Shown here: piece by piece, positions 1-45,400 of the stretch
How positions within the stretch are numbered: the first letter of the stretch is position 1
Layout: every line of letters begins with the position of its first letter
Made by a program: the position numbers and the translations under genes
Notes under the pieces: model-generated
The model's database searches: none
What the model was told of the DNA's origin: nothing
What the model saw: only the letters and a program-made list of their open reading frames with translations
Sequence record: MT446416.1
Origin: Escherichia virus TH47
Length of the DNA stretch: 64,000 bases
Reading direction: 5' to 3' (one strand)

Positions 1-302
1 CACCGTATGCACTTTCTAACTTCTCGCCAGTGTGATCATCAGTTAGTGAGTCATCCTCATAGTTCACGTCTACGCCCGTGATGTAAAACTGGCTATCGTC
101 TGGATCATTGAAATTAATTTTCTGAATGTTTACAATAACTGTATTGATTCCCAGGACACCGCCATCAGCCGTTACAAAGTACTGATAGTTTTCACAACCG
201 CCTGAATTGAAACCGTAATTAATTTCGGCCCGACCATCATTTAAACGCAGTGCCTGGGCGATGATTTCGTTTTCAAAGTTAGATTGAGCGATTGAGATCA
301 TT
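1..302 (-). CDS. hypothetical protein, C-terminus outside window
   Basis: ATG at 302 (minus) preceded by AGGAA; frame open to window edge. Confidence 0.5.
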
Positions 303-365
303 TTGTAGTTCCTTGTTTGCTTAAGATGGGACTATTATATAATAGCCCCGTTGTGTTGTCTAGTA

Positions 366-833
366 CTATTTCACGTTAATTTCAAAGTACTGCTCTTTGA
401 TGTTTTCCTGTTGGTAAATCTCGTTTAATGCTTTAAGATCTAACACCTGTTTACCTGCGGCCCGAATATACTTGTTAAGAGTCGCTAACAGCTTCTCAGG
501 CGTGTTTGTAGTCTTACGTGTTGGGATCTTATCGTGTCCCATAGCGTAGTACTGTTTACGTGGAATAGTACTGATAACGCTGCGGTACGGTTCCATGATC
601 AGCTTGTCTGTGTATTCGTCGCTATCCCCGAACTTCATACCGTGGATCGCAAAGGTCATCATCATGCGGTCGTTATCGCGGATATTGTGGGGGCAATCGG
701 CAAGCTCGCGAGTCAGTGACATAGTGATCCCCACGTCGCCACCCAGCGGTAAAGGTCGGGCGATAAAGAAACCGTTAGGGAATACTTTCAGGAAGTTTTC
801 TTGTACTGCTGCGACGAATTCGATGCTATTCAT
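366..833 (-). CDS. hypothetical early protein (155 aa)
   Basis: ORF with AAGGA RBS 8 nt upstream; promoter/stem-loop module directly upstream. Confidence 0.65.
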   Translation of the reverse strand: MNSIEFVAAVQENFLKVFPNGFFIARPLPLGGDVGITMSLTRELADCPHNIRDNDRMMMTFAIHGMKFGDSDEYTDKLIMEPYRSVISTIPRKQYYAMGHDKIPTRKTTNTPEKLLATLNKYIRAAGKQVLDLKALNEIYQQENIKEQYFEINVK

Positions 834-854
834 AATTCATTTCCTTAATTAGTG

Positions 855-913
855 GGGGAAGTTGTTTCCCCTCTCGATGAAAAACATTATACGCCAATTG
901 AGATAGTTTGCAA
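855..913 (-). promoter_or_regulatory. early promoter + 5'-UTR stem-loop module
   Basis: minus strand TTGCAA-N16-TATAAT, then hairpin GGGGAAnnnnnTTCCCC before RBS. Confidence 0.6.
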
Positions 914-1002
914 GTACTTTTTAAAAATAGTTTTCAGTACTCAATACTTATATAATAGATACACTTATGCACCCGGTGGGCTAGTGAGCTATCTCTCAAT
1001 GA

Positions 1003-1037
1003 ATATATAATAGCAAAATGGCTGACCGAAGTCAACC
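1003..1037 (-). promoter_or_regulatory. terminator-promoter cassette (copy a)
   Basis: minus-strand hairpin GGTTGAC-TTCG-GTCAGCC then T-rich tract; TTGACT inside stem serves as -35 for downstream TATTAT. Confidence 0.55.
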
Positions 1038-1048
1038 ACTTTTTTCAT

Positions 1049-1189
1049 TTATTTTTTAGCTTTTAGAATCGCCGCCTTTCGCGTCATGCCTTGCTTAATG
1101 TACTCCTTTACTTTCGCTTTACGTGCTTTCGCTTTATTTGCTTTCGTAAATGCCGAACAACTTTTATAGTTTAAACCTGTTGGATTCAT
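1049..1189 (-). CDS. small basic protein (46 aa)
   Basis: ATG directly after stop of upstream peptide gene (TAAATG); below ORF-track cutoff; followed by cassette terminator. Confidence 0.45.
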   Translation of the reverse strand: MNPTGLNYKSCSAFTKANKAKARKAKVKEYIKQGMTRKAAILKAKK

Positions 1190-1279
1190 TTAAATCACCA
1201 TAAAGAATAGATAGGTTACTAACAACGCCGCGATCAATGCACCGATCACCGCCGAACTGTAATAAGCAAATGATTTCAT
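1190..1279 (-). CDS. hydrophobic peptide (29 aa)
   Basis: ATGA start/stop overlap with upstream gene; single predicted transmembrane helix. Confidence 0.4.
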   Translation of the reverse strand: MKSFAYYSSAVIGALIAALLVTYLFFMVI

Positions 1280-1428
1280 TTTTTAGCCTGGAAGTAATGT
1301 TTAATTTGTGCGGCGGTCAGTGCACAATTTCGCAGGAAGTTTTCTGTATAACTGCGGCGAGTACTGAAAGAAAATTGACCTTTGCCGTTGCCGATAGTAA
1401 CATCAAACCGAGCGTTGTATTGTTTCAT
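1276..1428 (-). CDS. small protein (50 aa)
   Basis: ATG with GGAGA RBS; first gene behind module at 1448-1508. Confidence 0.45.
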   Translation of the reverse strand: MKQYNARFDVTIGNGKGQFSFSTRRSYTENFLRNCALTAAQIKHYFQAKK

Positions 1429-1447
1429 TTTGATTCTCCTTGTATCA

Positions 1448-1508
1448 GGGAGGAACCATTTCCCCCCCCTCTATGTAAAACATTATACAGTACTGAAAAC
1501 TAATTGCA
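1448..1508 (-). promoter_or_regulatory. early promoter + 5'-UTR stem-loop module
   Basis: TTGCAA-N16-TATAAT and GGGAGGAACCATTTCCCCCC hairpin. Confidence 0.6.
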
Positions 1509-1709
1509 AGTATTATTTTCTAAAAAATGATTGTATGCTGAATCAACCACTCTTTCGATAACATACGCCAACGGCCCGTATCCAACTACATGACTACAAT
1601 AGAAAGGACTACGATTAGAATCATCGTATGCAAATACTTTTTCAGGATCTGCATCAATCACATACATATTAACCTCTAAGATGTCGATCTTATCCTGTAC
1701 AGTAAGCAT
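1500..1709 (-). CDS. hypothetical protein (69 aa)
   Basis: internal ATG with AGGT RBS directly after stop of 1711..1962; the longer ORF-track version overlaps the neighbour. Confidence 0.45.
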   Translation of the reverse strand: MLTVQDKIDILEVNMYVIDADPEKVFAYDDSNRSPFYCSHVVGYGPLAYVIERVVDSAYNHFLENNTCN

Positions 1710-1710
1710 A

Positions 1711-1962
1711 TTAATTACCTTTTTCAATGTTTGATAATTCTTCCCAAAAACTTCCCGGATCAATATTATCATAATCCCCTGTAACGTCCTGTAACGCATT
1801 CTCAGGCTGTTTAACGGCTGGGGTAGCCATAGCCATTGCCTGGACTTGTTCGACGCTATAACGCTCATATAGGCGGCATTCTTCCGGTGTTAACATAGCA
1901 TCAATGCGTTTCATTGGTTTAATGATGCTTTCAACTTCATTCAGTACTTGATTAACGTTCAT
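1711..1962 (-). CDS. hypothetical acidic protein (83 aa)
   Basis: ATG with GAGGA RBS. Confidence 0.6.
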   Translation of the reverse strand: MNVNQVLNEVESIIKPMKRIDAMLTPEECRLYERYSVEQVQAMAMATPAVKQPENALQDVTGDYDNIDPGSFWEELSNIEKGN

Positions 1963-2013
1963 GGTATAATCCTCAATATAAGCGGCCTAAATCGACCGCT
2001 AACGATGTTTTGA

Positions 2014-2283
2014 TTAATAGGTGTATGGTTGACGCTCAAACAATGATTGCACGTTGTACGCCCCGCTAATGGGCTTCGCTGGTATGTCGATCTTATATTT
2101 CTCACGCTTAAAGATAATAAAACGGCAATTGTTCTTAACATCAAAATTGATTGAACGTTCCAGGAGTTTTCCATCGTGCACAAATACAAGATAACCGCTC
2201 GCTACTTGTTTTGTAGTACTGGTTGCAACCATTGACCGCCTAACATGCGTACCTGCATCGATTAAAGTACTGATATTTTTCAT
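2014..2283 (-). CDS. hypothetical protein (89 aa)
   Basis: ATG with AGAGGA RBS; promoter-like region and hairpin upstream (2290-2350). Confidence 0.6.
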   Translation of the reverse strand: MKNISTLIDAGTHVRRSMVATSTTKQVASGYLVFVHDGKLLERSINFDVKNNCRFIIFKREKYKIDIPAKPISGAYNVQSLFERQPYTY

Positions 2284-2363
2284 TTTACTATCCTCTTAAT
2301 TTGATTTAATTTCTTTCCCCTATGCAGACACTATATCAAAGTATCTGCATAAAGTAAAGCTAA

Positions 2364-2708
2364 TTAAAGATCTTTTTTGCGTTTAACATCAGTTACCGAA
2401 CTGTAAACAGTGATATTATTGTCACGGCAAAAACGGGAAAGATAAGAACCGCGTAAAAACTCTTTACCTTCCATATTAATAACCTTGCTAAATTCTTCCA
2501 TTGCTACAGTGTCAAAGTGATCCCCATAGCCATATTGGAACGGCACGTTTACTACTTCAATAAATTCGCCATTGATTTCAACATCTACCGTTAAAGAGAA
2601 ATAAGTATTACCATAAGACGCCTGGAACCAACGCCGGGCTGCAATATGTACAACTTCAACAGAAGACAGGTTGATGTTTTGTGCTGTGATAGTGTTGATG
2701 ATAGCCAT
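2364..2708 (-). CDS. hypothetical protein (114 aa)
   Basis: ATG with AAGAGGAA RBS; module upstream. Confidence 0.65.
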   Translation of the reverse strand: MAIINTITAQNINLSSVEVVHIAARRWFQASYGNTYFSLTVDVEINGEFIEVVNVPFQYGYGDHFDTVAMEEFSKVINMEGKEFLRGSYLSRFCRDNNITVYSSVTDVKRKKDL

Positions 2709-2726
2709 TTTTTGTTTCCTCTTAGT

Positions 2727-2782
2727 GGGGGAACCATTCCCCTTGATGTAATGTATTATACTTTATCTGATTTACTTTGCAA
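2727..2782 (-). promoter_or_regulatory. early promoter + stem-loop module
   Basis: TTGCAA-N16-TATAAT; hairpin GGGGGAACCATTCCCC. Confidence 0.6.
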
Positions 2783-2790
2783 GTACTTTT

Positions 2791-3018
2791 TTAATTTAAT
2801 TCATCCAGGCAAAGGATACGTTCTACACCTAAATCAGTTAAACTAATAGACGGCACTTGATAGGTTTCAATGTATGCTACACTTGCCCACTGACCGAACT
2901 CATTAACGGCCCAGGTATCCATTGCAAAATGCAATTCCGCACCTGCCTTGTTGGTAATGACTGCAACTACTTGTTCGTTGCCAGTAGTACCAGATACGCG
3001 AGTAATGATAATAGCCAT
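2791..3018 (-). CDS. hypothetical protein (75 aa)
   Basis: ATG at 3018 downstream of module; ORF-track N-terminal extension would run through the promoter module. Confidence 0.55.
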   Translation of the reverse strand: MAIIITRVSGTTGNEQVVAVITNKAGAELHFAMDTWAVNEFGQWASVAYIETYQVPSISLTDLGVERILCLDELN

Positions 3019-3038
3019 TGTTTTGATTCCTTTTATTT

Positions 3039-3103
3039 GGAGGGGAAACTGTTTCCCCCCCTCTCGATGTAAAACATTATACGCTAATCTCTTTATAGTG
3101 CAA
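3039..3103 (-). promoter_or_regulatory. early promoter + stem-loop module
   Basis: TTGCAC-N16-TATAAT; hairpin GGAGGGGAAACTGTTTCCCCCC. Confidence 0.6.
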
Positions 3104-3253
3104 GTACTTTTTATTACTTTTTGCAAAATACTTTAAACGCTCTCAATCGCTCTATAACAACATTAACGCCACCAGCTAGGGAAATGCATCAGATATTCAG
3201 TTTAATGCGTTAGAATCGTTTCTAGGCGGTGCTGGTGGCCTGGTAAACGGTAA

Positions 3254-3282
3254 ACACAAAAAATCCCACTGTTTAAGGTGGG
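3254..3282 (-). terminator. rho-independent terminator
   Basis: minus-strand hairpin CCCACCTTAAACAGTGGG followed by T-run, just after stop of 3306..3788. Confidence 0.6.
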
Positions 3283-3305
3283 CTAGTGATTCAGTACTTT
3301 AATTG

Positions 3306-3788
3306 TTATGCTTCAACTTTGCGATGAGCTTCGATCCATTCCTCGCGAGTCAATCCGCTTTCTTTGATAGCATCCAGTACTACCGAAATGCAGTTACCAC
3401 GCACCGGAATCAGATATTCTTCCCCGTTATCAAGTACTACCGCTACACGTTCTTGAATCCATTTTTTAGGCTTAGACTCCGGCTTATCTTCCCCATACTT
3501 AACCGCCAGGGCTTTTTGTGCCATCTCGGTAACTACTTCCATATCCAGCCCATCTACTACCGCCTGGATACTTTCAATTGTTGCTTGTAGTTCTGCTTCA
3601 CGGGCCGCCTTCGCTGCTTCAATCTCTGCCGCTTTATTTGCTTGTAGTTCTTTCGCAGTACTGTAAGCGATGTTAAAATTATTGCGAACCGCTTTCATGG
3701 TATCGTTATCCAGTTCAGCCAGGATCTCTGCCGCTACGTTAGTTTCATTTGCTACCAGTGCTTTGATGAATGATTTGATGTTAGCCAT
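3306..3788 (-). CDS. hypothetical coiled-coil protein (160 aa)
   Basis: ATG at 3788 with GAGGA RBS 8 nt upstream (ORF-track start is a TTG further up); Ala/Glu/Lys-rich heptad-like N-terminal half. Confidence 0.6.
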   Translation of the reverse strand: MANIKSFIKALVANETNVAAEILAELDNDTMKAVRNNFNIAYSTAKELQANKAAEIEAAKAAREAELQATIESIQAVVDGLDMEVVTEMAQKALAVKYGEDKPESKPKKWIQERVAVVLDNGEEYLIPVRGNCISVVLDAIKESGLTREEWIEAHRKVEA

Positions 3789-3889
3789 TAGATAAATCCT
3801 CAATTAAAGTTTAGTTTACGTTCATTAGTGTATCAAAGTTTAATCGACGTGTCCAGTTTTTCGTTCGACTTACTGGCGGTCTACTTAGT

Positions 3890-3939
3890 GTTCCCCGTCT
3901 TGATGTAATACATTCTACGCCTTTTTGCGGTAATGTCAA
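3890..3939 (-). promoter_or_regulatory. early promoter (degenerate module)
   Basis: TTGACA-N17-TAGAAT on minus strand; -35 abuts the stop codon of the HNH gene. Confidence 0.5.
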
Positions 3940-4500
3940 CTATCTTTTTGAATATTTTTTAATGTATCTCATAATCGCTGGCGGTGTAGTATTATACCTT
4001 TCAGCTAGTATAATTGAGTTAGCATCATGTGAATATGGTTTATACAGTTGTATAACTTCGTTAATCTCTTTTTCAGTTAGTTTTGTCCTAACATGCCTTA
4101 TACCTTCACTCTCATACTTCACTATTTTTTTAATAGGCGTTGCGTCGTCATGTATTCCGGTATCGTGTGCGTGTATTATGTTTTCCTTTCCGGTTGACCA
4201 TTCCAAATTACTGTAATGATTATTACTTTTATTTCTATCCTTATGATTAACCTGGACTTTCTTTCTTTTTGTTTTTTGTGCCCATTCTATTTGTGCAGGT
4301 GTCGGAGGGGGTAGATAGTTGGATGCAACCAATCTTTGAACATACTCAAAATGTTTTGATTTGTCTTCTCTTACAAGCGTTAATCTATGATACCCATCAG
4401 GGCGAATTGTTGGAGAAAGAATATTACTACCATAACGCCTAACATCCCCATACTCACTAATTTCATAAAGGGGATTCTCTTTTAATTGTTTCCATTCCAT
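3940..4500 (-). CDS. HNH homing endonuclease (I-HmuI/I-TevIII-like)
   Basis: N-terminal MEWKxLK..YEISEYG..DGYHRLTL and HNH core VNHKDRNKSNNHYSNLEWSTGKEN resemble the I-HmuI family (from memory). Confidence 0.8.
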   Translation of the reverse strand: MEWKQLKENPLYEISEYGDVRRYGSNILSPTIRPDGYHRLTLVREDKSKHFEYVQRLVASNYLPPPTPAQIEWAQKTKRKKVQVNHKDRNKSNNHYSNLEWSTGKENIIHAHDTGIHDDATPIKKIVKYESEGIRHVRTKLTEKEINEVIQLYKPYSHDANSIILAERYNTTPPAIMRYIKKYSKR

Positions 4501-4529
4501 TGATTTGATCCTTTTAGTTTCTCCTTTGT

Positions 4530-4574
4530 ATTATATCACACAAAAACAAAAAAAGCCCACTGTTTAAGGTGGGC
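4530..4574 (-). promoter_or_regulatory. terminator followed by extended -10 promoter
   Basis: hairpin GCCCACCTTAAACAGTGGGC + T-run, then TGTGATATAAT and RBS of the HNH gene. Confidence 0.55.
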
Positions 4575-4581
4575 TAGTGAT

Positions 4582-4881
4582 TTATAAACAGTTAATTACT
4601 CCTGTGTGCGTTACTTTCTCAGTATCCATTACAGTGACCGAACCGCGTTTAGTACTGGCATCATAATAAATTGTTGTGCTACCTTTCGCATCTTCTTCAT
4701 GGAACGGGCCGTTTTTAAATGCTTCTGGCTGGATCTCTAGATCCTTTAAAACAATATCGCCAGTTCTTTCTTCGGTCATTGCAACAGTGCACTGAATGAA
4801 TTTTTCACTACTTACATCTAACGACGCATTAACAGCGAAAGAGGAAACAGATAAAGCCAGGGAGATGATTGCTACTTTCAT
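4582..4881 (-). CDS. secreted small protein (99 aa)
   Basis: ATG at 4881 with AAGGA RBS; N-terminal signal-peptide-like MKVAIISLALSVSSFAVNA. Confidence 0.6.
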   Translation of the reverse strand: MKVAIISLALSVSSFAVNASLDVSSEKFIQCTVAMTEERTGDIVLKDLEIQPEAFKNGPFHEEDAKGSTTIYYDASTKRGSVTVMDTEKVTHTGVINCL

Positions 4882-4901
4882 TTGATTATCCTTAGTTACC
4901 A

Positions 4902-4955
4902 GGGGAACCGTTCCCCCTATGTAAAACATTATACGCGTTTAAAAACTATTATCAA
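4902..4955 (-). promoter_or_regulatory. early promoter + stem-loop module
   Basis: TTGATA-N16-TATAAT; hairpin GGGGAACCGTTCCCC. Confidence 0.6.
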
Positions 4956-4989
4956 GTACTTTAATATAAAAGTATTTGAAAAATAATTG

Positions 4990-5018
4990 TTGACAACTGC
5001 ATCCAGTACTGGCATAAT
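4990..5018 (+). promoter_or_regulatory. plus-strand sigma70-like promoter (CCAGTACTGG class)
   Basis: TTGACA-N17-CATAAT with CCAGTACTGG in spacer; back-to-back with minus module. Confidence 0.5.
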
Positions 5019-5024
5019 ACCTAC

Positions 5025-5118
5025 ATAAAGACAAAACAGTCTCCAACCCACCGGGTGCATAGATCCGTCTATTAAATGATTCAGTACTGCAAAATAAAGG
5101 GGATCAATTGATCCCCTC
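5025..5118 (+). ncRNA. candidate small RNA
   Basis: runs from promoter 4990-5018 through CCCACCGGGTGCA box (5047-5059) to perfect palindromic hairpin GGGGATCAATTGATCCCC (5099-5116); no ORF. Confidence 0.3.
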
Positions 5119-5122
5119 TGTA

Positions 5123-5344
5123 TTACTTAGTAAGGTATAAACAGAAGTCACCTTTATTTGCTACGCCGCCAGTGTAACGCGATGAATAGTTAGAAATATC
5201 TTGTACTTCTGCTATTACCAGTGTATCATCATTCATTTCGTCGCAGAAGCAAACGGCTGGATCTTTTACGCCGATATTGTCGGCATGTTCCCGCATAGAT
5301 TTAACCAGTGCTTCCAGTTGAGAAAGAGTAGTGATATTAGCCAT
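5123..5344 (-). CDS. hypothetical protein (73 aa)
   Basis: ATG at 5344 with GAGGA RBS; terminated by hairpin 5099-5116 + T-run. Confidence 0.55.
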   Translation of the reverse strand: MANITTLSQLEALVKSMREHADNIGVKDPAVCFCDEMNDDTLVIAEVQDISNYSSRYTGGVANKGDFCLYLTK

Positions 5345-5363
5345 TGTATTTTCCTCATTACCA

Positions 5364-5422
5364 GGGAGAACCATTTCTCCCCTCTATGTAAACTATTATA
5401 CAGTACTGGAAACTAATTGCAA
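5364..5422 (-). promoter_or_regulatory. early promoter + stem-loop module
   Basis: TTGCAA-N16-TATAAT; hairpin GGGAGAACCATTTCTCCC. Confidence 0.6.
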
Positions 5423-5534
5423 GTACTTAATGGTAAGATCCGCAACGGTTGCAGTAGTTTTATTTGTTCGATCATGATGCTTACTCCTGGTTAAAGGCGG
5501 GAACCATTCCCCGCCATTGTCACAGTACTGAATA

Positions 5535-5774
5535 TTACATTCCAACCATTGCAGCACGGATCGCAGTAGTGCTATACTTGAATCCGTCCGGCGTTGTAGT
5601 AGTACCGTTGGCTTTTAATCTGCGGTACATACATTCCGCTGCAATATCTTTCGTTTTACTTTGAGCGATGCAATTTTGAGCAATCCGGTACAATGATTCA
5701 TCGTTATTGATCCAAAGGCTTACATTCCAATGAGTTTTGTTTTTGTGTCCGTTGTAAGTTTTAGTACTAGCCAT
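5535..5774 (-). CDS. hypothetical protein (79 aa), paralog of 7563..7790
   Basis: shared motif T(K)T(F/Y)NGHKNxxHWNVSLWINNDESLY and C-terminal AAMVGM; GAGGA RBS. Confidence 0.7.
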   Translation of the reverse strand: MASTKTYNGHKNKTHWNVSLWINNDESLYRIAQNCIAQSKTKDIAAECMYRRLKANGTTTTPDGFKYSTTAIRAAMVGM

Positions 5775-5795
5775 TTTTTAATCCTCTTATATAGT

Positions 5796-5852
5796 GGGGA
5801 ACTATTCCCCACCTGATGTAAAGTATTATACGCTTTTAAACTTAGTTTGCAA
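5796..5852 (-). promoter_or_regulatory. early promoter + stem-loop module
   Basis: TTGCAA-N16-TATAAT; hairpin GGGGAACTATTCCCC; near-identical to module 7153-7209. Confidence 0.6.
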
Positions 5853-5863
5853 GTACTTTTTAA

Positions 5864-6475
5864 TTAATATGCGATTGATTCTACTACGCCATCAATAACA
5901 TTGAATTGATATTCGTTACCCTCAATCAGTGCCGTAATGTTTTCAGTAGTGAATTGATCCTTATATGCATTCTCTAAATCACGGTAAAACTTGCGTGACA
6001 ATTCACGAATAGTATCAGTTAGTAGTTTCTCAAGCTCATTAACTAACGTTTCTTGTTTTGAGGTTAAATCAGTGTAAGCCGATTCAATGTACCCGCTTAC
6101 AGTGTTCTCATGCGAGTAATGGGAGTGAGATCGCTTTACACTCATCGCCAAATCATCTTCATTCAGCAGGTGACGGATTGAGCGATACTTAGTTAATGCT
6201 CTTACCTTGCGTAAAAACTTCACTGCGTCAACGTGGTCAGTACTGATTGATGCACCGTCACCCTGGGACCAAAAACCACTGAATTGTATTTCAGCGTCAT
6301 TAATGCCATATTCTGGTAGTACTGTTTCTTTATAGTATTCAATTTCACTTTCAGAAAAATAATCGTCGTTTGTGTTTTTTTCACGTTCCCGAACCAGTTC
6401 GATAGCTGACGTTTTTTGTTCTGCGTTCAATTCAGAAAAATCCATAACATAAGTAGTAGTAGTGATAGTTTTCAT
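5864..6475 (-). CDS. hypothetical acidic protein (203 aa)
   Basis: ATG with GAGGG RBS; Asp/Glu-rich; two tandem promoters upstream. Confidence 0.65.
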   Translation of the reverse strand: MKTITTTTYVMDFSELNAEQKTSAIELVREREKNTNDDYFSESEIEYYKETVLPEYGINDAEIQFSGFWSQGDGASISTDHVDAVKFLRKVRALTKYRSIRHLLNEDDLAMSVKRSHSHYSHENTVSGYIESAYTDLTSKQETLVNELEKLLTDTIRELSRKFYRDLENAYKDQFTTENITALIEGNEYQFNVIDGVVESIAY

Positions 6476-6507
6476 TTTGTAACCCTCATTCAGTAGTTGA
6501 TGTAAGT

Positions 6508-6535
6508 ATTATACGCTTTTAAAAACAATTGTCAA
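6508..6535 (-). promoter_or_regulatory. sigma70-like promoter
   Basis: TTGACA-N16-TATAAT directly upstream of 5864..6475. Confidence 0.55.
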
Positions 6536-6586
6536 ACTATTTTATCAGGGGAGTTTTTCGTATGCCTTACTCCTGGGCTACTCAAC

Positions 6587-6653
6587 GGGGAGTTACTTAT
6601 TTCGTTCCCCGTCCTGATGTAATACATTATACGCCGTTAAACATAGTATGCAA
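6587..6653 (-). promoter_or_regulatory. early promoter + stem-loop module (second, tandem)
   Basis: TTGCAT-N16-TATAAT; hairpin GGGGAGTTACTTATTTCGTTCCCC; no ORF between it and the next promoter. Confidence 0.5.
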
Positions 6654-6696
6654 GTACTTTTTAAAATAGTTTTCAGTACTGAATAGTAAAAAGGTA

Positions 6697-6725
6697 TTGA
6701 CAGCACTATCCAGTACTGGCATAAT
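6697..6725 (+). promoter_or_regulatory. plus-strand promoter (CCAGTACTGG class)
   Basis: TTGACA-N17-CATAAT; followed by CCCACCGGGTGCA at 6747-6759. Confidence 0.5.
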
Positions 6726-6840
6726 ATACCCCATGACAACAGCTAACCCACCGGGTGCACAATTGTAACTGTACTAAACTACTTTTTCTATAGATACACT
6801 CCCGCACCCCGTGGGCCAAATTGTTCGTTTCAATAGATAC

Positions 6841-6869
6841 ATTATGCCAGTACTGACAAAATAAGTCAA
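6841..6869 (-). promoter_or_regulatory. minus-strand promoter (CCAGTACTGG class), convergent with 6697-6725
   Basis: TTGACT-N17-CATAAT on minus strand; followed by inverted CCCACGGGGTGCGG box (6804-6817). Confidence 0.5.
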
Positions 6870-6899
6870 TACTGGCAATTGTAAAGATTTGTAAACTAC

Positions 6900-7130
6900 T
6901 TATACTGCAATCGCGTCCAGGCTATAATAATAATAAGTGCCGTATTGGTGTACTTTATTACCTTTTATTTCAGTACTGAATGAATCCGAACGATTAGCAT
7001 ATGATGTTAATTTAAAGTACTTTGCTTTACTAATACGTTGCCATACACCGCAGATCCGCTGTAAGTAAGTAGTTTTATTAGTGGTAGTATCTTTTACGGT
7101 TTTAACTTCGGTCATATACATATTAGCCAT
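6900..7130 (-). CDS. hypothetical protein (76 aa)
   Basis: ATG at 7130 with AAGAGGA RBS; module upstream. Confidence 0.6.
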   Translation of the reverse strand: MANMYMTEVKTVKDTTTNKTTYLQRICGVWQRISKAKYFKLTSYANRSDSFSTEIKGNKVHQYGTYYYYSLDAIAV

Positions 7131-7152
7131 TTTTTTAATCCTCTTATGTAGT

Positions 7153-7209
7153 GGGGAAGTATTCCCCATCTGATATAAAGTATTATACGCTTTTAAACTT
7201 AGTATGCAA
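7153..7209 (-). promoter_or_regulatory. early promoter + stem-loop module
   Basis: TTGCAT-N16-TATAAT; hairpin GGGGAAGTATTCCCC. Confidence 0.6.
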
Positions 7210-7217
7210 GTACTTTT

Positions 7218-7481
7218 TTATAGTACTGCAATCTTTTTAGTACGGTACACGGTAACGCGATTGCCCTTGCGGTCGTGCTTTATTTCTACTACTCGCCGCG
7301 ATACACTATCAGGACTTTTTAACGCCGCCAACCAGTACTGTAAAGATCTGGCTTTACTTTGCTTTACTACCGCCCAACGTTTACCACGTTCCGATTGTCC
7401 GCCCATATCTTTAAACGTCGCCCCGTCCAGACGTGCGGCGATCCGTGCTTGTTCACGCGTCACAAAGTACATAATATTCAT
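7218..7481 (-). CDS. hypothetical basic protein (87 aa)
   Basis: ATG start; promoter-like TTGCAC...TATAAT upstream. Confidence 0.55.
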   Translation of the reverse strand: MNIMYFVTREQARIAARLDGATFKDMGGQSERGKRWAVVKQSKARSLQYWLAALKSPDSVSRRVVEIKHDRKGNRVTVYRTKKIAVL

Positions 7482-7562
7482 GCTGTTACCCCATCGTTGA
7501 CGTATAAAAGAAATCTATTATAAAGTACTATCACCGTGCAATAGTACTTTAAATATATTCTA

Positions 7563-7790
7563 TTACATTCCAACCATCGCCGCACGCACGCTTGATTTGC
7601 TATAACGTGCCCCATCAGGCGTGTGAGTACCTAAAAGGCGTAACATCCGCTCAACCGCTTTATCTCGCGTGTTGGTGCTTTTAATACTTTCCAGGGCCAA
7701 TTGGTACAGTGATTCATCGTTATTGATCCAAAGGCTTACATTCCAATGGTTGTAGTTTTTATGGCCGTTGAAAGTTTTAGTAGTAGTCAT
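7563..7790 (-). CDS. hypothetical protein (75 aa), paralog of 5535..5774
   Basis: paralog motifs as above; AAGAGGAA RBS. Confidence 0.7.
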   Translation of the reverse strand: MTTTKTFNGHKNYNHWNVSLWINNDESLYQLALESIKSTNTRDKAVERMLRLLGTHTPDGARYSKSSVRAAMVGM

Positions 7791-7810
7791 TTTTAATTCC
7801 TCTTAAGTGC

Positions 7811-7870
7811 AGCGGGAACCATTCCCGCTCTCGATGTAATACATTATACGCTATTTGATAGTACTGTCAA
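7811..7870 (-). promoter_or_regulatory. early promoter + stem-loop module
   Basis: TTGACA-N16-TATAAT; hairpin AGCGGGAACCATTCCCGCT; about 50 nt identical to module 8270-8330. Confidence 0.6.
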
Positions 7871-7883
7871 ACTAATTTTTAAC

Positions 7884-8246
7884 TTATTCGTAAATTTTGC
7901 CACTGTCAGCCCATACCAGGAAACGAGGCATATTATCCCATGCATCTTGTTTTAAATTTAAACCGTGTAATACTTCTGTACTTTCCATTCCTGGTACTGG
8001 TTTACTATACACCGCGAACATTTCACCCATATACTGATAAGCCATCGTTAAATCACTGGCGATCATCTTATGGATCATCGCATCAAGCATCACGGTAGCG
8101 GCGTATTGTTCACGCTTAAGCGGCAACATTGCAATAAGTCCACGATAAGCTGAAATGTGAATTTTTACCGTTTCTGCCGGAAGATCTTTCATCTCGTCGC
8201 GGAAGTTAACCAGGTTAGCAATAATTTTATTGATTTGTGTCGCCAT
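7884..8246 (-). CDS. hypothetical protein (120 aa)
   Basis: ATG with RBS; module upstream. Confidence 0.65.
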   Translation of the reverse strand: MATQINKIIANLVNFRDEMKDLPAETVKIHISAYRGLIAMLPLKREQYAATVMLDAMIHKMIASDLTMAYQYMGEMFAVYSKPVPGMESTEVLHGLNLKQDAWDNMPRFLVWADSGKIYE

Positions 8247-8269
8247 CGTTTTTAATCTCTCTTAAAGTG

Positions 8270-8330
8270 CAGCGGGAACCATTCCCGCTCTCGATGTAAT
8301 ACATTATACGCCGTTAAACATAGTATGCAA
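8270..8330 (-). promoter_or_regulatory. early promoter + stem-loop module
   Basis: TTGCAT-N16-TATAAT; hairpin AGCGGGAACCATTCCCGCT. Confidence 0.6.
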
Positions 8331-8380
8331 GTACTTTCTACAAATACTTTTAAAATAGTTTTCTTTCTATATAGGGGAAC

Positions 8381-8432
8381 TATCTTTCAGTACTATCTTT
8401 CAGTACTATCATTCAGTACTATCATTCAGTAC
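8381..8432. repeat. 4 x 13-bp direct repeat TATC(T/A)TTCAGTAC
   Basis: four contiguous units read directly. Confidence 0.85.
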
Positions 8433-8596
8433 TGAATCAATCCACTAAATCATCCCTATACCCCGTAAAACGGCCTCAGACGCATTCTAACGCATTAATA
8501 CACCTAAGCTATACATTTGCACCATTCCAATCATTCCAGGGCTTTACGGGCCGTTGAAACGCGTTAAATTATTTTCAATTATTTTGTTTTTAGGTA

Positions 8597-8624
8597 TTGA
8601 CTTGATCCTGAAAAAGCGTATAAT
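8597..8624 (+). promoter_or_regulatory. plus-strand sigma70-like promoter
   Basis: TTGACT-N16-TATAAT; CCCACAGGGTGCGG box about 30 nt downstream. Confidence 0.5.
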
Positions 8625-8813
8625 TACTACATAAGCCGGACACAAGGCACTAACCCACAGGGTGCGGAATTACGCCCAAAATTCAAGATATAAAAAAAGG
8701 ATACACTCCCGCACCCTAGCAGGTCAACGCACTTTCTCAGTACTGAAATATAGTACCATAGTACTTGCCAGGATAGCAAGCAAATTAATTAAAACTTTTT
8801 TGCTTCCAGGGTA

Positions 8814-8841
8814 TTGCTTTATTTTTTCAGTACTGTATAAT
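8814..8841 (+). promoter_or_regulatory. plus-strand promoter
   Basis: TTGCTT-N16-TATAAT; CCCACCGGGTGCA box at 8870-8882. Confidence 0.45.
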
Positions 8842-8937
8842 AGTTTCATCAAGTCGAGAAAGACTCAAGCCCACCGGGTGCATAGTTACGCCCAAAATTC
8901 AGTACTGAAAAAATTTTTAAAATATCTGTCCAGGCCG

Positions 8938-8966
8938 TTGACATTGCCCCCAGTTTATAAGATAAT
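8938..8966 (+). promoter_or_regulatory. plus-strand promoter
   Basis: TTGACA-N17-GATAAT; two GGGGAA...TCCCC-type hairpins downstream. Confidence 0.45.
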
Positions 8967-9059
8967 GATTCCAGATTCAGAAAAATCTAACTCCAGATAC
9001 TGCGGGGAAACTATCCCCACGCGGTAGGGGAACTATTGGAAAAAACAAAATAAAATTTT

Positions 9060-9200
9060 GATTTAGCCGTCTATACTTCCAGACGTGTAACCATCTAGCC
9101 GTTTAGCCGTCCAAACGTCTAGCCATCCAGCCATCCAGAAATCTAGCCGTTTAGCCGTCTAGATGGATAGCCATCTTTACTTCCATACTTCTGGAGGTCT
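9060..9200. repeat. iteron cluster (TAGCCRTY x about 9) with CCAAAATCC repeats just downstream
   Basis: tagccgtc / tagccgtt / tagccatc units within about 130 bp, interleaved with tctaga-type palindromes. Confidence 0.8.
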
Positions 9201-10099
9201 AGACATATCTACGTCCAAAATCCACCCAGGGTTACTACACCCAAAATCCGTCAGTACTATACCATAGATCTATCTTTTGAAAGGGAGTATTCAGTACTGC
9301 CATCATAGCCCTCACTATGTTACCCTAGGAGGATGAAGACTATCATGTAGTACTGAATACTGTTAGAGGGAATCCACCAGCTTGTGCTGGTGGCATAATG
9401 CTTTAGATTAAAATCAGTACTGACACCATTCTGTTAATATCAGTACTGTTATTACGATTTTCATATGAGGTTCAAAAAGATGTACCACCACAGGAGGAAC
9501 TATCTTTTCTGTACTGTCTCACGACAGGAGGTAGAGTAAATGAATTGTTCGCAGCAACTCATCTCTCTATGTAGAACATTATACAGTACTGAATCATAAT
9601 GTCAATAACTTTCTTTCACCATTCAGTACTGATATTCTTGAGAACTACCCGTCTACAAACATCATTATATCCCACAAATCATAAACGTCCCAACGTAAAT
9701 TTCAACTTTCGAAGATCCAACTTTTATTTCATAGGTACTCCAAAATTTTTAGGATCGAGATTTAGGATGGAGTACTAACCAACTTTTTGCTGGAGCCTCA
9801 AGGGGTAATTGAATTTTACCCCGAAGGGTAAAAGGGTAATTGAAATTAAGGTGAAAGTAATAATTCAGTACTAATCATTGCGTGATTACTTTTGATTACA
9901 TTTGATGTAATTTGCAAAATGGAAAAGGAGCTTGGAAACTAAAAAGTACGGTAGACTTCCTCTGCCTACTTAGTGGGATATCGACACCTTCAGTACTGAA
10001 TACTTTTGGGGCAGTACTGCTACGTTCTTGATTAAACGTGCACATTCCTGTACTCTATTACACTCTAGTACTCACTACTGATCAGTACTGATCACTACA

Positions 10100-10150
10100 G
10101 TGATTATAAATGATTACTTAAATGTTTATATATGATTACTTATGATTACT
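10100..10150. repeat. ATGATTACTTA direct repeats (3 copies)
   Basis: read directly. Confidence 0.7.
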
Positions 10151-10154
10151 TATG

Positions 10155-10175
10155 ACAAAGAGAAGCCAAAAGCTT
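10155..10175 (-). terminator. terminator of small-gene array
   Basis: hairpin GAGAAGC-nnnn-GCTTCTC followed by T-rich tract on minus strand. Confidence 0.5.
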
Positions 10176-19255: not shown

Positions 19256-20416
19256 ATGTTACCTTTTGCTAGAATGGTTAAGTACGGAAACATTGCACCA
19301 TCCCCTGCTGCCATTAAAAAATTAGTTACCGGATATAACTGGGTTATGGTATTGGGTAGTAATGGTAAATTATATACCCGTGGTGCCAATTCAAGTGGTC
19401 AGTTGGGTTTAGGAGACAATACAGCCAGAACATCATGGACATTAACTGCATCGGATGTCATTGATGTATGGTGTGGTCAGTATGCCACAATGATTCACAA
19501 ATCAGATGGTACATATCAATACACAGGGAAACAATACAATGTGTGTATGGGTACATCATCTGTTAATGCATGGACTTCTATGCAAACTCTTATTAATCAA
19601 GTTAATTCTCAAGGAACAATTACAGAAATATCACTAGGAAATAACTTCATTTCAATACTTATGAGTAATGGGACCATTTGGTGTGGTGGTTATAACACAG
19701 GAGGACAGCTTGGCAATGCTTCTTATTCTAACAGTTTTACTACATTAGTAAAATCAATTATACCAAGTGGTGCGGTTCCGAAAAGGATTATTGCAGGTAT
19801 AAACATGTGTTCATTTATTGCCGAAAGTGGTAGATTATATTACACAGGTGAAGTTAATGGTGATACTAACAGTACTTCAACCGTGAGTTTTTATAATGTA
19901 TTCACATTGTCAGATAGATTACCAGCAACTGTTAGTACTATAGCATTTATAAGTACTGTTAATGATATGGTGCAAGGTATTGCAAGAAACAAAAGCACGT
20001 CAGTTGTTTCAGTGTACACAGGTGGTGATCAATTATATGGACAGGCTGCTACTGGTACTGATACTACAACAAAAATATTGACAACTGTTGTGGCAAATCA
20101 ACCACAAGGAAATATATTAGATATAGGATATGGGTACGGATATTACTCTAACTTTGTTATTACTGACACAGGTGTATACGTTGCTGGTAATAACTCAGCG
20201 ACTTCATACTATGGACAATTAAGTACAGGTTCAACTACTAACGTATTAACTTACACTAAGTCTATTACTCCTGATTTAAATTTCAATGATGTTAAAATCC
20301 AAAGTTGCTATGGTAAAACATATATGACAGATGGAAACAAAATATATTCAAGTGGTACTAACCTAGTATCTGGTGGTACTGCTAGTACTATATTTGTTGA
20401 AGATTCACCAATTTAA
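19256..20416 (+). CDS. RCC1-like repeat protein, paralog 5
   Basis: 386 aa; MLPFARMVKYGN; 12-nt spacer from paralog 4 (co-transcribed). Confidence 0.75.
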   Translation: MLPFARMVKYGNIAPSPAAIKKLVTGYNWVMVLGSNGKLYTRGANSSGQLGLGDNTARTSWTLTASDVIDVWCGQYATMIHKSDGTYQYTGKQYNVCMGTSSVNAWTSMQTLINQVNSQGTITEISLGNNFISILMSNGTIWCGGYNTGGQLGNASYSNSFTTLVKSIIPSGAVPKRIIAGINMCSFIAESGRLYYTGEVNGDTNSTSTVSFYNVFTLSDRLPATVSTIAFISTVNDMVQGIARNKSTSVVSVYTGGDQLYGQAATGTDTTTKILTTVVANQPQGNILDIGYGYGYYSNFVITDTGVYVAGNNSATSYYGQLSTGSTTNVLTYTKSITPDLNFNDVKIQSCYGKTYMTDGNKIYSSGTNLVSGGTASTIFVEDSPI

Positions 20417-42475: not shown

Positions 42476-45400
42476 TTTATTTTGAAGTTCTTGAACTAAT
42501 TGTCGTACTTCTTTGATGTTATGACACTGCTTTACAGTGAAGTAATCATACTTACGACCATAGGTTCTTGGGTCATCACCTTCCATATACTGCTGCACAT
42601 CAAAGATTTGTAAGTAGGGATGCTGCATAACACGAATGTTATCACATTGATAAATCAACATATGTTTAGTCCTCATATTTACACAAGCCACCGAATGTTG
42701 CCTGTTTTGCTGCCTTACGCATCATCACAAGTTTAACATACTGTTCGCCATTACTTTCTTCATATACATCAACTTGAAGAAATGCAAGCATATTGGGATC
42801 AGTATCATTCGAGTACTGCGTAAAACTAATGTCACCTACAGTATGTTCTTTAACAAAATTATACACTTCACCGTCGATATAAACGATAGTATGGTCATCG
42901 CTATCACCTTGGTAAATGTGTTTAATATCACCTTCAGTACAGACTAGTCCAGGTAATGGTTCTGCATAAGACATACCACACACAATCATACAAACAAAAA
43001 ACAAAATTACTTTCATGATTTGTTTCCTTTGGATAAAATTGATTTCTTCACTTTGTACTGCTTGTAGTTATTATACCAAACATCGGTTACATAAATCAAG
43101 TACCAAAGTGATGGATATAATGCTAGACCAATAAAAACTGAAAAAATACTTGTATTAATAAAATCAATACAGTACAGTGTAAATGCAAAGATTAGAATAC
43201 CAATGGTAATCATACTAGCTGTATATGGTACACTATCAGATGCAAACCATGAATCAATCTTACTAATTAAAGTATACTTTCCAGTACTAACAGCATAAAC
43301 AATTGCTACTATACCAAATAATGCCATTGAAATAGTTATTACTGAGTTAATAAGAATCGGAGTAATTAATACATAAAGCATTACATCGTTTATCATTTGT
43401 TATACCTTAAAGTTCACAATGAATATTCAATTTATCAATATCCTGATCGCGTTTGTTCGACGAATCTTGATAAATGTCTATGTAAATATCCCCATCCTTT
43501 GTCTTGGGGTCCACTATCAATATTACATTTGCTATTATACCAGCATCTGATTTATATGTCGATACCTTTTTATTCCCAATCAAACTCTCGGCCCTGAAAC
43601 GGTAAACCTCATTATCTACGACAATATTGTTTCCATTTTGTGGGTCATTAGAAAGTACATGCCATGTTCCATCGTTTCCCATACAATCAAGGGAAGCAGG
43701 TACGGCTGTACTGAACCTTGAATAAAGCATGAATACTACAAACACCATTATCATTCTTATATATTTTTTCATTATAACCTCTAACGAGTAATACTTCTAT
43801 ACAAATAATATGTACAGAAGTATTTAATACTATTAGAGAATTTTTGAACGTTACTTCTTGCTAGTTAGTTTTTCTTTCAGGATATCAATCCAAATGGAAA
43901 CTTTACCAGCAAACAATGCATTAGCAAACCATACAATTCCAACAATGTTCTCAACTAAATTCATAATTGAAACAAAAGGTCCAATTGGGAATACAAAACT
44001 TACTAACCATGACAGTACTGAAATAAGTACTACAACAAAGAAGATTCGTGCAATAGGTGAGTCTAGCATAAACAACTCACGAAACTCATCACGCTCGGTT
44101 TCGTCTTTAATGAAGAATTCGAAAACCATAACCAATAACAGAATTAGAGCAGGAATTGAAATTAGAACTGATAACATGTTTTATATCCTCAAGTTTAAGT
44201 GTTAAGTTTCAGACTACAAGAACCATTATACAGTACTACGAACGTTTGTCAACATTTGTTTCTTCAATAAGCATAAGATAACTTAACACGAAGAGTAATA
44301 CAGATACAATGTCAATAACGGTGAAGCTTACTGGAATGATAATAGACACTAGAACGAGTGCCACGTTTAGCAAGAATACAGTAGTGATATCTACCAGCTT
44401 TCGTTTAGTGGCTACTGCTACTAGTGTAGGGTAGAACATAAACAATAATGCAACTACAAAACTCAATACTAGATACATTTCTTTTTCACCTTAAGAAAAT
44501 TATAACATAAAACAACCTCAACATCTGGCTCATCATACAAGTACTCAAAGCGTTCTTTACTACGCTTAGTACCGATGTACTCACCATTCTTATGCCAACG
44601 CCACCCACCACTCTCTGGTTGGTCAGACTTCAGTACTGGATGATAGCACATGACAATTTCTTCTGGACCTTCAATAAGGTTCTTGTACTTCGTCAAAATC
44701 TGTTCAAGCGTATCTGCTACACCATAAGATGGGTGCATAAGATAAGACTCAGGACGTGGACGACCACTTGGCAGAATGTCATCAGTACTATTAAAGATAG
44801 CACGGAAGTCTTCTGACGTGTATAAACTTCCATCTTCATGGATCATTGGATATTCATCCACTACATCATAATCAGTGAAGTGCTCGATGGCATGTTCAGG
44901 TCTGTAACCTGCGAGAATACCTGTATGTTTCGTCTGTACAATAGTCATAACAGATGTACTATTGTTTACATTAGGATCATGAATCTCAGCCCAAAAAGGA
45001 TGATGAGGATCAAATGTAGCATTAACTAAAGTACAATCACCAATGTAGTCGAAATTAGTTTCTTTAAAGTTCAAAGAAACACCACGCAATGCCCAATCAG
45101 GAGAAGTGATGAAATTAAGATTTACTAACATAGTATCCTCAGTTGCAGTTGTTTTTTGATGTAGTTATTGTATCAGAGACGTGTCAATTTGTACAACATT
45201 TATTGTAACTATTTCGTACATATATTCAATTGCATTGAACTCTGCATACCACTCTACAATCTCACAAGCAGCATCAACTTGGTTTTTCGCATTAACACGT
45301 CTGGCATAGGTGCTGCTCATTTTGAATCTACCATATTCATAGACATTGTAGACACCATGACACCACCACATCTTAGTCATTAATGCTAGGCCATACAGTG

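Follow-up and report, generated by a model that had tools for sequence, protein, structure and literature searches.

Introduction

A stem-loop lying within a few nucleotides of the 5′ end stabilises Escherichia coli RNA, as known from work on the 5′ untranslated region (5′UTR) of ompA, and the put RNA of phage HK022, made of two specific stem-loops (~70 nt), renders RNA polymerase termination-resistant in cis. For phages such as T5, whose genomes carry terminal repeats, it is known in principle that pre-early transcription can be shut off as a class. The promoter-early stem-loop (PeSL) of T4-type phages is composed of a stem-loop, a promoter and a Shine-Dalgarno (SD) sequence with start codon (PMC2839356, PMC4122927), and the Pseudomonas jumbo phage PA5oct produces from its direct terminal repeat (DTR) two highly expressed transcripts free of open reading frames (ORFs), ncRNA001 and ncRNA002, of 236 and 451 nt, for which no promoter was reported (PMC7318152). 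Here we analysed a stretch of 64,000 nt of Escherichia virus TH47 (sequence record MT446416.1; hereafter the window), and in particular the convergent promoters at 6697-6725 (+) and 6869-6841 (-). They belong to a set of seven units, numbered U1 to U7, in which a promoter is followed by a short conserved box. A previous sequence-only reading had proposed for this box the role of an operator for a phage regulator, of an RNA processing site or of an antitermination-type signal. We find that the box is an RNA hairpin, hpB, inside a larger structured leader composed of hp1, hpB and hp2, and not a linear sequence box or operator.

The box is a hairpin within a structured leader RNA

The seven units of the window were compared with those of vB_Ec-M-J, G17, the Klebsiella phages Muenster and fENko-Kae01 and the Erwinia phage Hallingskeid. 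Searched as CCCACCGGGTGC with up to two mismatches, the box has six matches in the window against 0.56 expected from composition, and none of 100 shuffles reached six. The sites are on the plus strand at 5047, 6747, 8654 and 8870 and on the minus strand at 980-969 and 6815-6804; among them are the copies that had been placed behind the promoters at 8597-8624 and 8814-8841 and in a cassette at 969-981. A seventh, degenerate copy, CTGCTAGGGTGC, lies at 8722-8711 (-) opposite the 8597 unit and forms with it a second convergent pair, absent from the sequence-only reading. In every copy the box begins 21-29 nt past the -10 hexamer, on the transcribed strand, compared with the distance of about 25-30 nt given earlier. 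Promoters and box are real, non-random and linked.

The structured leader spans 45-50 nt from the predicted transcription start, taken as the A of a conserved CAT, and is composed of hp1, a spacer of 3-6 nt, hpB and, in most copies, hp2. The first hairpin, hp1, occupies the 15-24 nt between the predicted start and the box and begins 1-5 nt from the 5′ end. Its stem of 3-5 bp is copy-specific yet complementary (AGAC/GUCU, GCC/GGC, AGUC/GACU, UGAG/CUCA, CGC/GCG, GGAG/CUCC and ACCG/CGGU are among the 32 distinct stem sequences of 67 distinct leaders), and it closes a purine-rich loop of 6-8 nt, for instance GNGAAA, AGAUAA, AGAACAA or GGACACAA. In a position-constrained hairpin search scored against shuffles, 78% of the 67 distinct leaders had an hp1 of at least 3 bp with the 3′ arm ending 2-7 nt before the box, versus 24% of shuffled leaders (maximum 42% in 1000 shuffles). 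This search was used because plain MAFFT and covariance model (CM) alignments fix the register of hp1 and under-count its pairing (60-64%). Two-sided changes were found by the tool alignments at all four hp1 pairs, and in vB_Ec-M-J the hp1 stem of U3 is replaced by GGC...GCC with the pairing kept.

As a hairpin, the box reads R-CCC-(loop of 3-4 nt)-GGG-U and then GC, a form matched by 89 of the 97 distinct units found in the window's relatives. The hpB helix was selected independently by RNAalifold and RNAfold, and its predicted energy is uniform (-3.9 +/- 0.3 kcal/mol). The loop is of the form AYN or UNNA, namely ACA (45), AUA (16), ACC (8), UAGA, ACG, UCAA and others, and changes its length by 1 nt, between 3 and 4 nt, in 12 of the 89 units. 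The position preceding CCC holds a purine throughout (A in 45 and G in 44 units), which can pair with the U that follows GGG. Moreover, in the only two copies, both divergent, in which the first G of GGG has become A, the last C of CCC is U, giving a compensatory CCU...AGG.

The third element, hp2, pairs GGGUGC with a YRYCY-type segment 6-8 nt downstream (UGUAUCU, UACGCCC, UACACCC, UCCGUCC). It shares the GGG run with hpB, so that the two hairpins are mutually exclusive, and their predicted free energies are close. The hp2 cells are paired in 88.7% of cases versus at most 52% when the partner is slid along the sequence, and in 55 of 89 units the predicted energy of hp2 is -3 kcal/mol or lower. 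Its pairing is largely of the G-U type and therefore exists only in the sense RNA. The loop indel, the purine-U closing pair, the two compensatory changes, the strand-specific wobble of hp2 and the covariation of hp1 together argue for a constraint acting on RNA and not on a duplex operator. We regard this anatomy, the existence of the family and the constraint at the RNA level as very probable.

Seven units in the outer part of the terminal repeat

A covariance model, R1, was built from 46 units; its E-values are rough owing to a shortened calibration, and bit scores are the safer guide. In the 64-kb window R1 identified exactly seven units, six full (30.6-45.7 bits) and one partial, with no further match above 10 bits and nothing convincing in 9971-64000. 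The units are listed below; promoters were scored in a consensus promoter scan.

4990-5018 (+): U1 promoter, TTGACA-17-CATAAT, with TG and with AGTACT in the spacer; 11/12 matches
5025-5125 (+): U1, predicted ORF-free small RNA of ~100 nt; CM 45.7 bits; fold -24.9 kcal/mol, z -3.6
5029-5042 (+): U1 hp1 (AGAC-AAAACA-GUCU); hpB/box at 5046-5058, a local hairpin at 5059-5072 and the terminator palindrome at 5098-5117
6697-6725 (+): U2 promoter, TTGACA-17-CATAAT, with TG; 11/12 matches
6732-6772 (+): U2 leader, short A-rich type with no stable hp1; hpB/box at 6746-6758; CM 30.6 bits
6841-6869 (-): U3 promoter, TTGACT-17-CATAAT, with TG; 10/12 matches; converges on U2
6790-6836 (-): U3 leader; hp1 at 6834-6820 (AUUG-AAACGAA-CAAU), hpB/box at 6816-6804, hp2 at 6809-6792; CM 37.4 bits
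8597-8624 (+): U4 promoter, TTGACT-16-TATAAT; 11/12 matches
8631-8679 (+): U4 leader; hp1 at 8635-8648 (GCC-GGACACAA-GGC), hpB/box at 8653-8665; CM 39.4 bits
8660-8677 (+): U4 hp2, GGGUG/CGCCC
8692-8779 (-): U5, degenerate unit facing U4; promoter-like TTGCTA-18-TACTAT at 8779-8750; partial CM match, 17.7 bits
8743-8729 (-): U5 hp1; half box CTGCTAGGGTGC at 8722-8711, hp2 with a run of seven U at 8717-8692, terminator-like site at 8717-8698
8814-8895 (+): U6, directed toward the genome end; promoter TTGCTT-16-TATAAT at 8814-8841, with a weak -35 and below the cut of the consensus scan; CM 41.0 bits; no clear terminator downstream
8852-8865 (+): U6 hp1 (AGUC-GAGAAA-GACU); hpB/box at 8869-8881, hp2 at 8876-8893
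955-1042 (-): U7, gene-direction leader; promoter TTGACT-17-TATTAT at 1035-1007, with the -35 in a terminator hairpin at 1042-1015; CM 44.6 bits
998-985 (-): U7 hp1 (UGAG-AGAUAG-CUCA); hpB/box at 981-969, hp2 at 974-957

The window comes from an Asteriusvirus, the group of 121Q/PBECO4-like E. coli jumbo phages, and ~35 genomes of this group (121Q, PBECO4, G17, slurp01, vB_Ec-M-J and others) align to positions 4800-9200 at 86-92% identity. In vB_Ec-M-J the counterpart of 4800-9200 falls in the annotated DTR of 21,525 bp, and base 1 of that genome, its physical end, aligns to window position 9970, which indicates that positions 1-9970 of the window correspond to the outer DTR half and run toward the physical end. 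All box units lie in this part, at positions below 9000, and the remaining 54 kb of the window are without units. The small genes of the DTR are encoded on the minus strand, and the GC skew switches sign at ~10 kb. According to the promoter scan nearly each DTR gene has its own promoter cassette, and several intrinsic terminators separate successive units.

Predicted lone RNAs, convergent pairs and operon leaders

About one third of the units are gene-less. Lone units run against the genes, and a GC-rich bidirectional terminator begins 39-41 nt past their box in four genera; the predicted RNAs are ORF-free, 93-106 nt long, and carry AGUACUG at a fixed position. U1 is such a unit: from its predicted start at ~5025 to the perfect 20-nt palindrome at 5098-5117 it would give an ORF-free RNA of ~96-101 nt; an RNA of about 90 nt ending at a palindromic hairpin had been predicted for the 4990 promoter. 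With regard to the architecture of Hfq-type sRNAs, in which an A/U-rich single strand precedes an intrinsic terminator with a 3′ U-run, an A/U-rich linker and the perfect hairpin are present, and the tail past 5117, CUCUGUAUU, is below the cut of the terminator scan on the plus strand. The one short AUG frame of U1 is not kept, having 11 codons here and 4 in vB_Ec-M-J. U1 is conserved in more than 35 Asteriusvirus records, never annotated as RNA, and the order of promoter, leader and box as well as the terminator spacing recur in at least four genera, which makes it a credible small-RNA gene.

Convergent pairs occur twice per DTR, 1-7 kb from the genome end, and are represented here by U2/U3 and U4/U5. 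The overlapping antisense transcripts expected from the facing 6697 and 6841 promoters are borne out at the level of prediction: with starts at ~6732 (+) and ~6834 (-), the RNAs of U2 and U3 would be complementary over a mutual overlap of ~100 nt. Each convergent transcript would enter the leader of its partner and fold into a long box:anti-box hairpin (-30 to -43 kcal/mol, z -4 to -5.4).

In gene-direction units the terminator stem of the gene before them usually encloses the -35. U7 exemplifies this, and its transcript runs into the promoter/hairpin/SD cassette of ORF 833-366. The composite at 1042-1007 (-) has its -35, TTGACT, spread over loop and stem of a terminator hairpin of 12 bp, the U-tract of which extends into the -10, and the buried -35 design (GGGGTTGACTTCGGTCAGCCCCTTTTG) is common to most gene-direction units of relatives.

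The promoter spacer belongs to a genome-wide motif

The sequence-only reading had three promoters share TTGAC(A/T)-N7-spacer-CATAAT. This holds exactly, as TTGACA-N7-CCAGTACTGG-CATAAT, for the 4990 and 6697 promoters; the 6869-6841 promoter has TCAGTACTGG instead. Neither is the spacer specific to the box, given that AGTACTG(G)-YATAAT is also found upstream of ordinary gene promoters, within and beyond the DTR. For the hexamer AGTACT, composition predicts 21.7 occurrences in the window and 228 were counted; it is the commonest palindromic hexamer, more than three times as frequent as the next one. The CCAGTACTGG spacer is a by-product, or one instance, of this genome-wide motif, and AGTACT is probably the site of a DNA-binding or DNA-modifying protein. 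We also observed that 44% of the AGTACT sites are in the 25% of sequence outside ORFs of at least 80 aa. They are found in promoter spacers, directly 5′ of the -35 (AGTACTTGCAA) and within predicted small RNAs (sRNAs); examples are 5005-5010, 6712-6717, 8397-8402 and 44232-44237. In GAP32-like phages AGTACT forms terminator stems (CCAGTACTGG).

An RNA family of RaK2-like jumbo phages

In the DTR loci of relatives R1 gave 110 matches, 97 of them distinct, at 24-54 bits. The phages that carry the module infect Escherichia, Salmonella, Klebsiella, Cronobacter, Erwinia, Pectobacterium and Yersinia, and in a pattern scan of IMG/VR the motif was confined, apart from a few chance matches, to large contigs (345-378 kb), those of RaK2, 121Q, GAP32, the Pectobacterium phage CBB and the Yersinia phage fHe-Yen9-04. 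The four complete DTRs hold ~9-16 units per phage, hence twice as many per virion genome. The same pattern scan over 596 Gb of bacterial genomes returned 70 scattered single matches (by our estimate ~140 would arise by chance), none in Enterobacterales and all at 27.7 bits or less. Rfam release 15 gave no match at gathering score over the window; at E ≤ 10, the region 800-9300 had three weak unrelated matches, none on an hp1-hpB-hp2 leader, the weakest of them spanning the U1 locus on the opposite strand. No tRNA or tmRNA was found in the window by ARAGORN. In GenBank records the units are unannotated, have only their promoters marked (GAP32) or lie under spurious ORFs, and we found no published description of the box sequence or of the units in the literature on Asteriusvirus, RaK2 and Sharanji, in a jumbo-phage review or by searching the box strings. 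The RNA motif and the small-RNA family appear undescribed.

Leader variants are identical across genera though their flanks differ, about a dozen variants being each kept to the nucleotide. For instance, AUAAGCCGGACACAAGGCACUAA is common to the window, Muenster, RaK2 and Hallingskeid, and the 23-nt leader of U4 is identical in the latter three. In vB_Ec-M-J the leader 8631-8659, 28 nt from hp1 through the box loop, is precisely replaced by another variant (L006, 1348-1320). Such an exact swap between identical promoter and downstream flanks suggests cassette conversion between units.

Additional features were seen around the units of relatives. Convergent pairs of Klebsiella and Erwinia relatives flank a Fur-box-like palindrome (e.g., GCGAATGATTATCATTTCGC, GAGAATGATAATCATT), and a LexA-box-like CTGTACAAATAAACAG precedes the sRNA terminators in the same relatives; both are absent from the window. 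These sites are at 1027-1063 and 7303-7332 of L008, at 2411-2451 of L007 and at 19373-19402 and 19911-19947 of L009. In Muenster (L007, 18-29) a box copy, CCCACTGGGTGC, points outwards at a distance of 17 nt from the physical end defined by PhageTerm.

Genes and repeats around the units

Among ~15 DTR ORFs, Pfam and PHROGs yielded no RNA-binding candidate; the matches were two DUF7249, a weak DUF3846 and an HNH/NUMOD4 endonuclease. The DUF7249 proteins are paralogous (75-79 aa) and encoded at 7790-7563 and 5774-5535 on the minus strand. The homing-endonuclease ORF (HNH_3 and NUMOD4, 186 aa, 4500-3940, minus) interrupts the series of small DTR genes as an insertion, and a bidirectional terminator flanks it at 4554-4575. 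The remaining ORFs tested belong to no Pfam family and have only PHROGs matches of unknown function.

A second repeated cassette precedes nearly every DTR gene (913-886, 1509-1482, 2782-2755, 5422-5395 and 5852-5825, minus strand). It is PeSL-like, its order being TTGCAA-16-TATAAT, a GC-rich palindromic hairpin (GGGGAAC..GTTCCCC type), SD and ATG. Near the end of the DTR there are tandem arrays at 8379-8433 (ACTATCATTCAGT, 4.2 copies) and at 9064-9162 (based on TAGCCGTC, with periods of 8, 16, 24 and 32 nt), and TGATTAC-type 10-nt repeats follow at 10089-10155, just past 9970. Chi octamers (GCTGGTGG) form inverted pairs at 3169-3176/3231-3238 and 9374-9381/9386-9393, four within 10 kb of GC-poor DTR. 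One Chi octamer of the window adjoins a CATAAT hexamer, and in relatives (L010, L030 and Muenster) Chi is found inside the spacers of box-unit promoters.

Discussion

Our leading interpretation, which we hold with considerable reserve, is that U2/U3 would be one convergent pair from a family of immediate-early units filling the DTR of RaK2-like jumbo phages. Each unit would combine a near-consensus host sigma-70 promoter with a structured module, present from the first transcribed nucleotide, that acts as RNA. Within this module, hp1 would shield the triphosphate 5′ end from 5′-end-dependent decay; its position 1-5 nt from the 5′ end would fit the rule for 5′ stabilising stem-loops. In turn, one factor, encoded by phage or host, would recognise hpB with the following GC as a sequence-specific handle and would set the fate of the immediate-early RNA class by stabilisation, processing or timed turnover, and the gene-less units would be small RNAs carrying or titrating that factor. 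This stability and handle mechanism, reconstructed from position and conservation, is possible but distinctly more tentative than the existence of the units. One and the same module heads gene-less, convergent and operon RNAs, and a role tied to the RNA explains these contexts better than one in the expression of a downstream gene. Among the three functions proposed earlier, a processing or recognition site on RNA would be the best fit.

Several observations weigh against this interpretation. About one fifth of the leaders, U2 among them, are short and A-rich, with 2 bp only and no stable hp1; hp2 is missing or weak in 24 of 89 units; and, read in the direction of the small RNA, the U-tails of the lone-unit terminators are poor. 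Covariation in the CCC/GGG stem is very rare (two informative sequences), so that the invariance of this stem could instead reflect DNA or single-strand recognition. Transcript starts, ends and abundance are predictions, the recognising factor is hypothetical, and a pure stability role would leave unexplained why hp1 is conserved to the nucleotide across genera.

That conservation suits the view that the gene-less units are trans-acting base-pairing sRNAs, with the 5′ leaders or the box as seeds against host or phage mRNAs and with hpB/hp2 and the terminator as scaffold. About a dozen leader variants are nucleotide-identical in different genera while their flanks vary, lone units have a classical sRNA layout and a constant length, and convergent pairs are perfectly complementary partners with the long box:anti-box hairpins described above (z -4 to -5.4); in the distant relative PA5oct, moreover, ORF-free DTR transcripts are highly expressed (PMC7318152). 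On the other hand, the candidate seed is largely locked in hp1, the seven leaders have no complement of 11 nt or more elsewhere in the window, giving chance matches of 9-10 nt only, and no stretch of E. coli rRNA, rrn leader or tRNA-Glu is convincingly complementary to the usual box variants alike. The module also heads ordinary early operons, and we consider the base-pairing explanation unlikely. Against the rrnB RNAs of E. coli the box gave a single match of 13 nt, rich in G-U and lying in 23S rRNA, which was rejected, as it involves the ACC variant only and not ACA/AUA.

Somewhat less likely still is cis-acting processive antitermination of the nut/put kind, or another control of elongation, in which nascent hp1-hpB, alone or with a factor, would modify RNA polymerase to pass the DTR terminators. 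The fixed promoter-proximal position at every strong early promoter, the layout of a hairpin plus a conserved element and the several intrinsic terminators between successive units would all suit such a role, and the choice between hpB and hp2 recalls the logic of an attenuator, with U5, devoid of the CCC half, ending in hp2 and a run of seven U. However, one third of the units are gene-less with a terminator 39-41 nt away, a spacing kept across genera, which is the opposite of what read-through predicts, and DTR genes are, with few exceptions, each provided with a promoter cassette of their own. A boxA-like sequence is present in 0 of 97 units and a GNRAN pentaloop hairpin in 1 of 97, there is no ops consensus, and the half of the DTR contained in the window has no arginine-rich N-like ORF. 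The antitermination-type signal put forward by the sequence-only reading is therefore a poor fit, though a possible one.

An improbable pair of variants gives the module a more elaborate task: either hpB with GC would be a constant protein-loading handle on about a dozen interchangeable 5′ specificity hairpins, each kept to the nucleotide, in a multi-copy RNA system directing one early factor during takeover to varied conserved targets (nucleic acids or proteins of host or phage), or the hpB/hp2 switch would be a new, protein-free reprogrammer of host RNA polymerase.

We think it quite improbable that the box is a double-stranded DNA operator or roadblock, with a phage early protein binding CCCAYNGGGTGC at +20 to +32 of the immediate-early promoters to shut off the class. 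Twelve nearly invariant positions with almost no covariation, the fixed distance and orientation to the promoters and the T5-like precedent speak for it. Yet a 1-bp change of the CCC-GGG spacing is tolerated in 12 of 89 units, dyad symmetry is lacking, CCCAC/GGGTG not being an inverted repeat, and a hairpin accounts for the purine-U closing pair and for the double changes to CCU...AGG; the G-U pairs on which hp2 relies exist on the sense strand only, and the covariation of hp1 shows that the adjoining sequence is constrained as RNA. The earlier proposal of an operator for a phage regulator is disfavoured on the same grounds.

DNA-level promoter cassettes with the leader as passenger, be they R-loop-primed origins, RNA polymerase sinks or anchors at the entering end or PeSL-like recombination modules, are very improbable: the convergent pairs do cluster 1-4 kb from the physical end in all four complete DTRs, gene-direction units overlap terminator stem-loops as PeSLs do (PMC4122927) and a leader was precisely swapped between this phage and vB_Ec-M-J, but a passenger would not keep hp1 pairing over 32 stems, an invariant hpB and a fixed sRNA length across genera.

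Other candidates were rejected. A mini-ORF, with GGGUG as Shine-Dalgarno followed by NUG-UAU-CUA-UAG, would exist in the UGUAUCU subfamily only, and d7 is G in ~55% of units. Likeness by eye to Chi, an NtrC half-site, a DnaA box, the tRNA-Val acceptor end, tmRNA PK1 or the RNase P S-domain fails on the commoner variants or on spacing. As to a CRISPR-repeat mimic (RNA anti-CRISPR), the box is not known to resemble the enterobacterial I-E and I-F repeats.

RaK2-like jumbo phages (121Q, PBECO4, RaK2, GAP32, CBB and others) are frequent candidates for therapy and biocontrol, and the module, kept among phages that infect seven or more host genera, is found at each strong early promoter of the host type. 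The covariance model is a ready tool for annotating predicted small RNAs that are now unannotated or under spurious ORFs in the records. The module also offers a short mutable target for probing the control of the immediate-early class and, if a single factor does read the invariant hairpin, a handle on the whole takeover programme.

Comparison with known systems

Like PeSLs, which are short repeated cassettes in the plastic early regions of T4-related myoviruses and are linked to modular exchange, the units associate a terminator stem-loop with a near-consensus sigma-70 early promoter; the -35 of U7 lies inside a terminator stem, and a leader was swapped between close relatives. The overlap of terminator and promoter is found in U7 and in most gene-direction units of relatives, and not in U1-U4 and U6. 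An SD and start codon never directly follow the unit, the module preceding a terminator, a convergent unit or a second promoter cassette. PeSLs also have no conserved transcribed leader; here hp1-hpB-hp2 defines the unit, and one third of the units are gene-less.

With lambda nut (boxA and boxB, bound by N) and HK022 put the module shares small purine-loop hairpins and a conserved segment in promoter-proximal early RNA. The lambda boxA consensus (CGCUCUUA or UGCUCUUUA) is absent from window 1-10000 and, within 1 mismatch, from all 97 units; a boxB-type 5-nt GNRA-like loop occurs in 1 of 97 leaders, the loops of hp1 having 6-8 nt and those of hpB 3-4 nt; and no ORF in window 1-10000, which is half of the DTR, has an arginine-rich N-like N-terminus. 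In addition, unlike nut and put, the module keeps a fixed distance from +1, and many copies stand directly before a terminator that appears to define the RNA end. The RfaH ops element GGCGGTAGnnTG has no match in the leaders, and isolated GGCGGTAG cores within ORFs are not kept in vB_Ec-M-J. The mutually exclusive hpB and hp2, with their shared GGG run and close predicted energies, and the terminator-like hp2 and U-run of U5 recall attenuators, but hp2 is mostly without a following U-tract and no terminator is controlled.

The PA5oct ncRNA001 and ncRNA002 are likewise non-coding units in the long terminal repeat of a related jumbo myovirus; homology was rejected, R1 giving at most 8.7 bits across the region that holds both. 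The stabilisers of the ompA 5′UTR type resemble hp1 in its distance of 1-5 nt from the predicted 5′ end and in the preservation of pairing over sequence. They differ in that the hp1 variants and loops are conserved to the nucleotide across genera and in that hpB has no counterpart among them. In conclusion, the hp1-hpB-hp2 module constitutes an apparently undescribed RNA motif and family of small RNAs, belonging to a general kind already known, that of phage early regulatory cassettes and leader RNAs.

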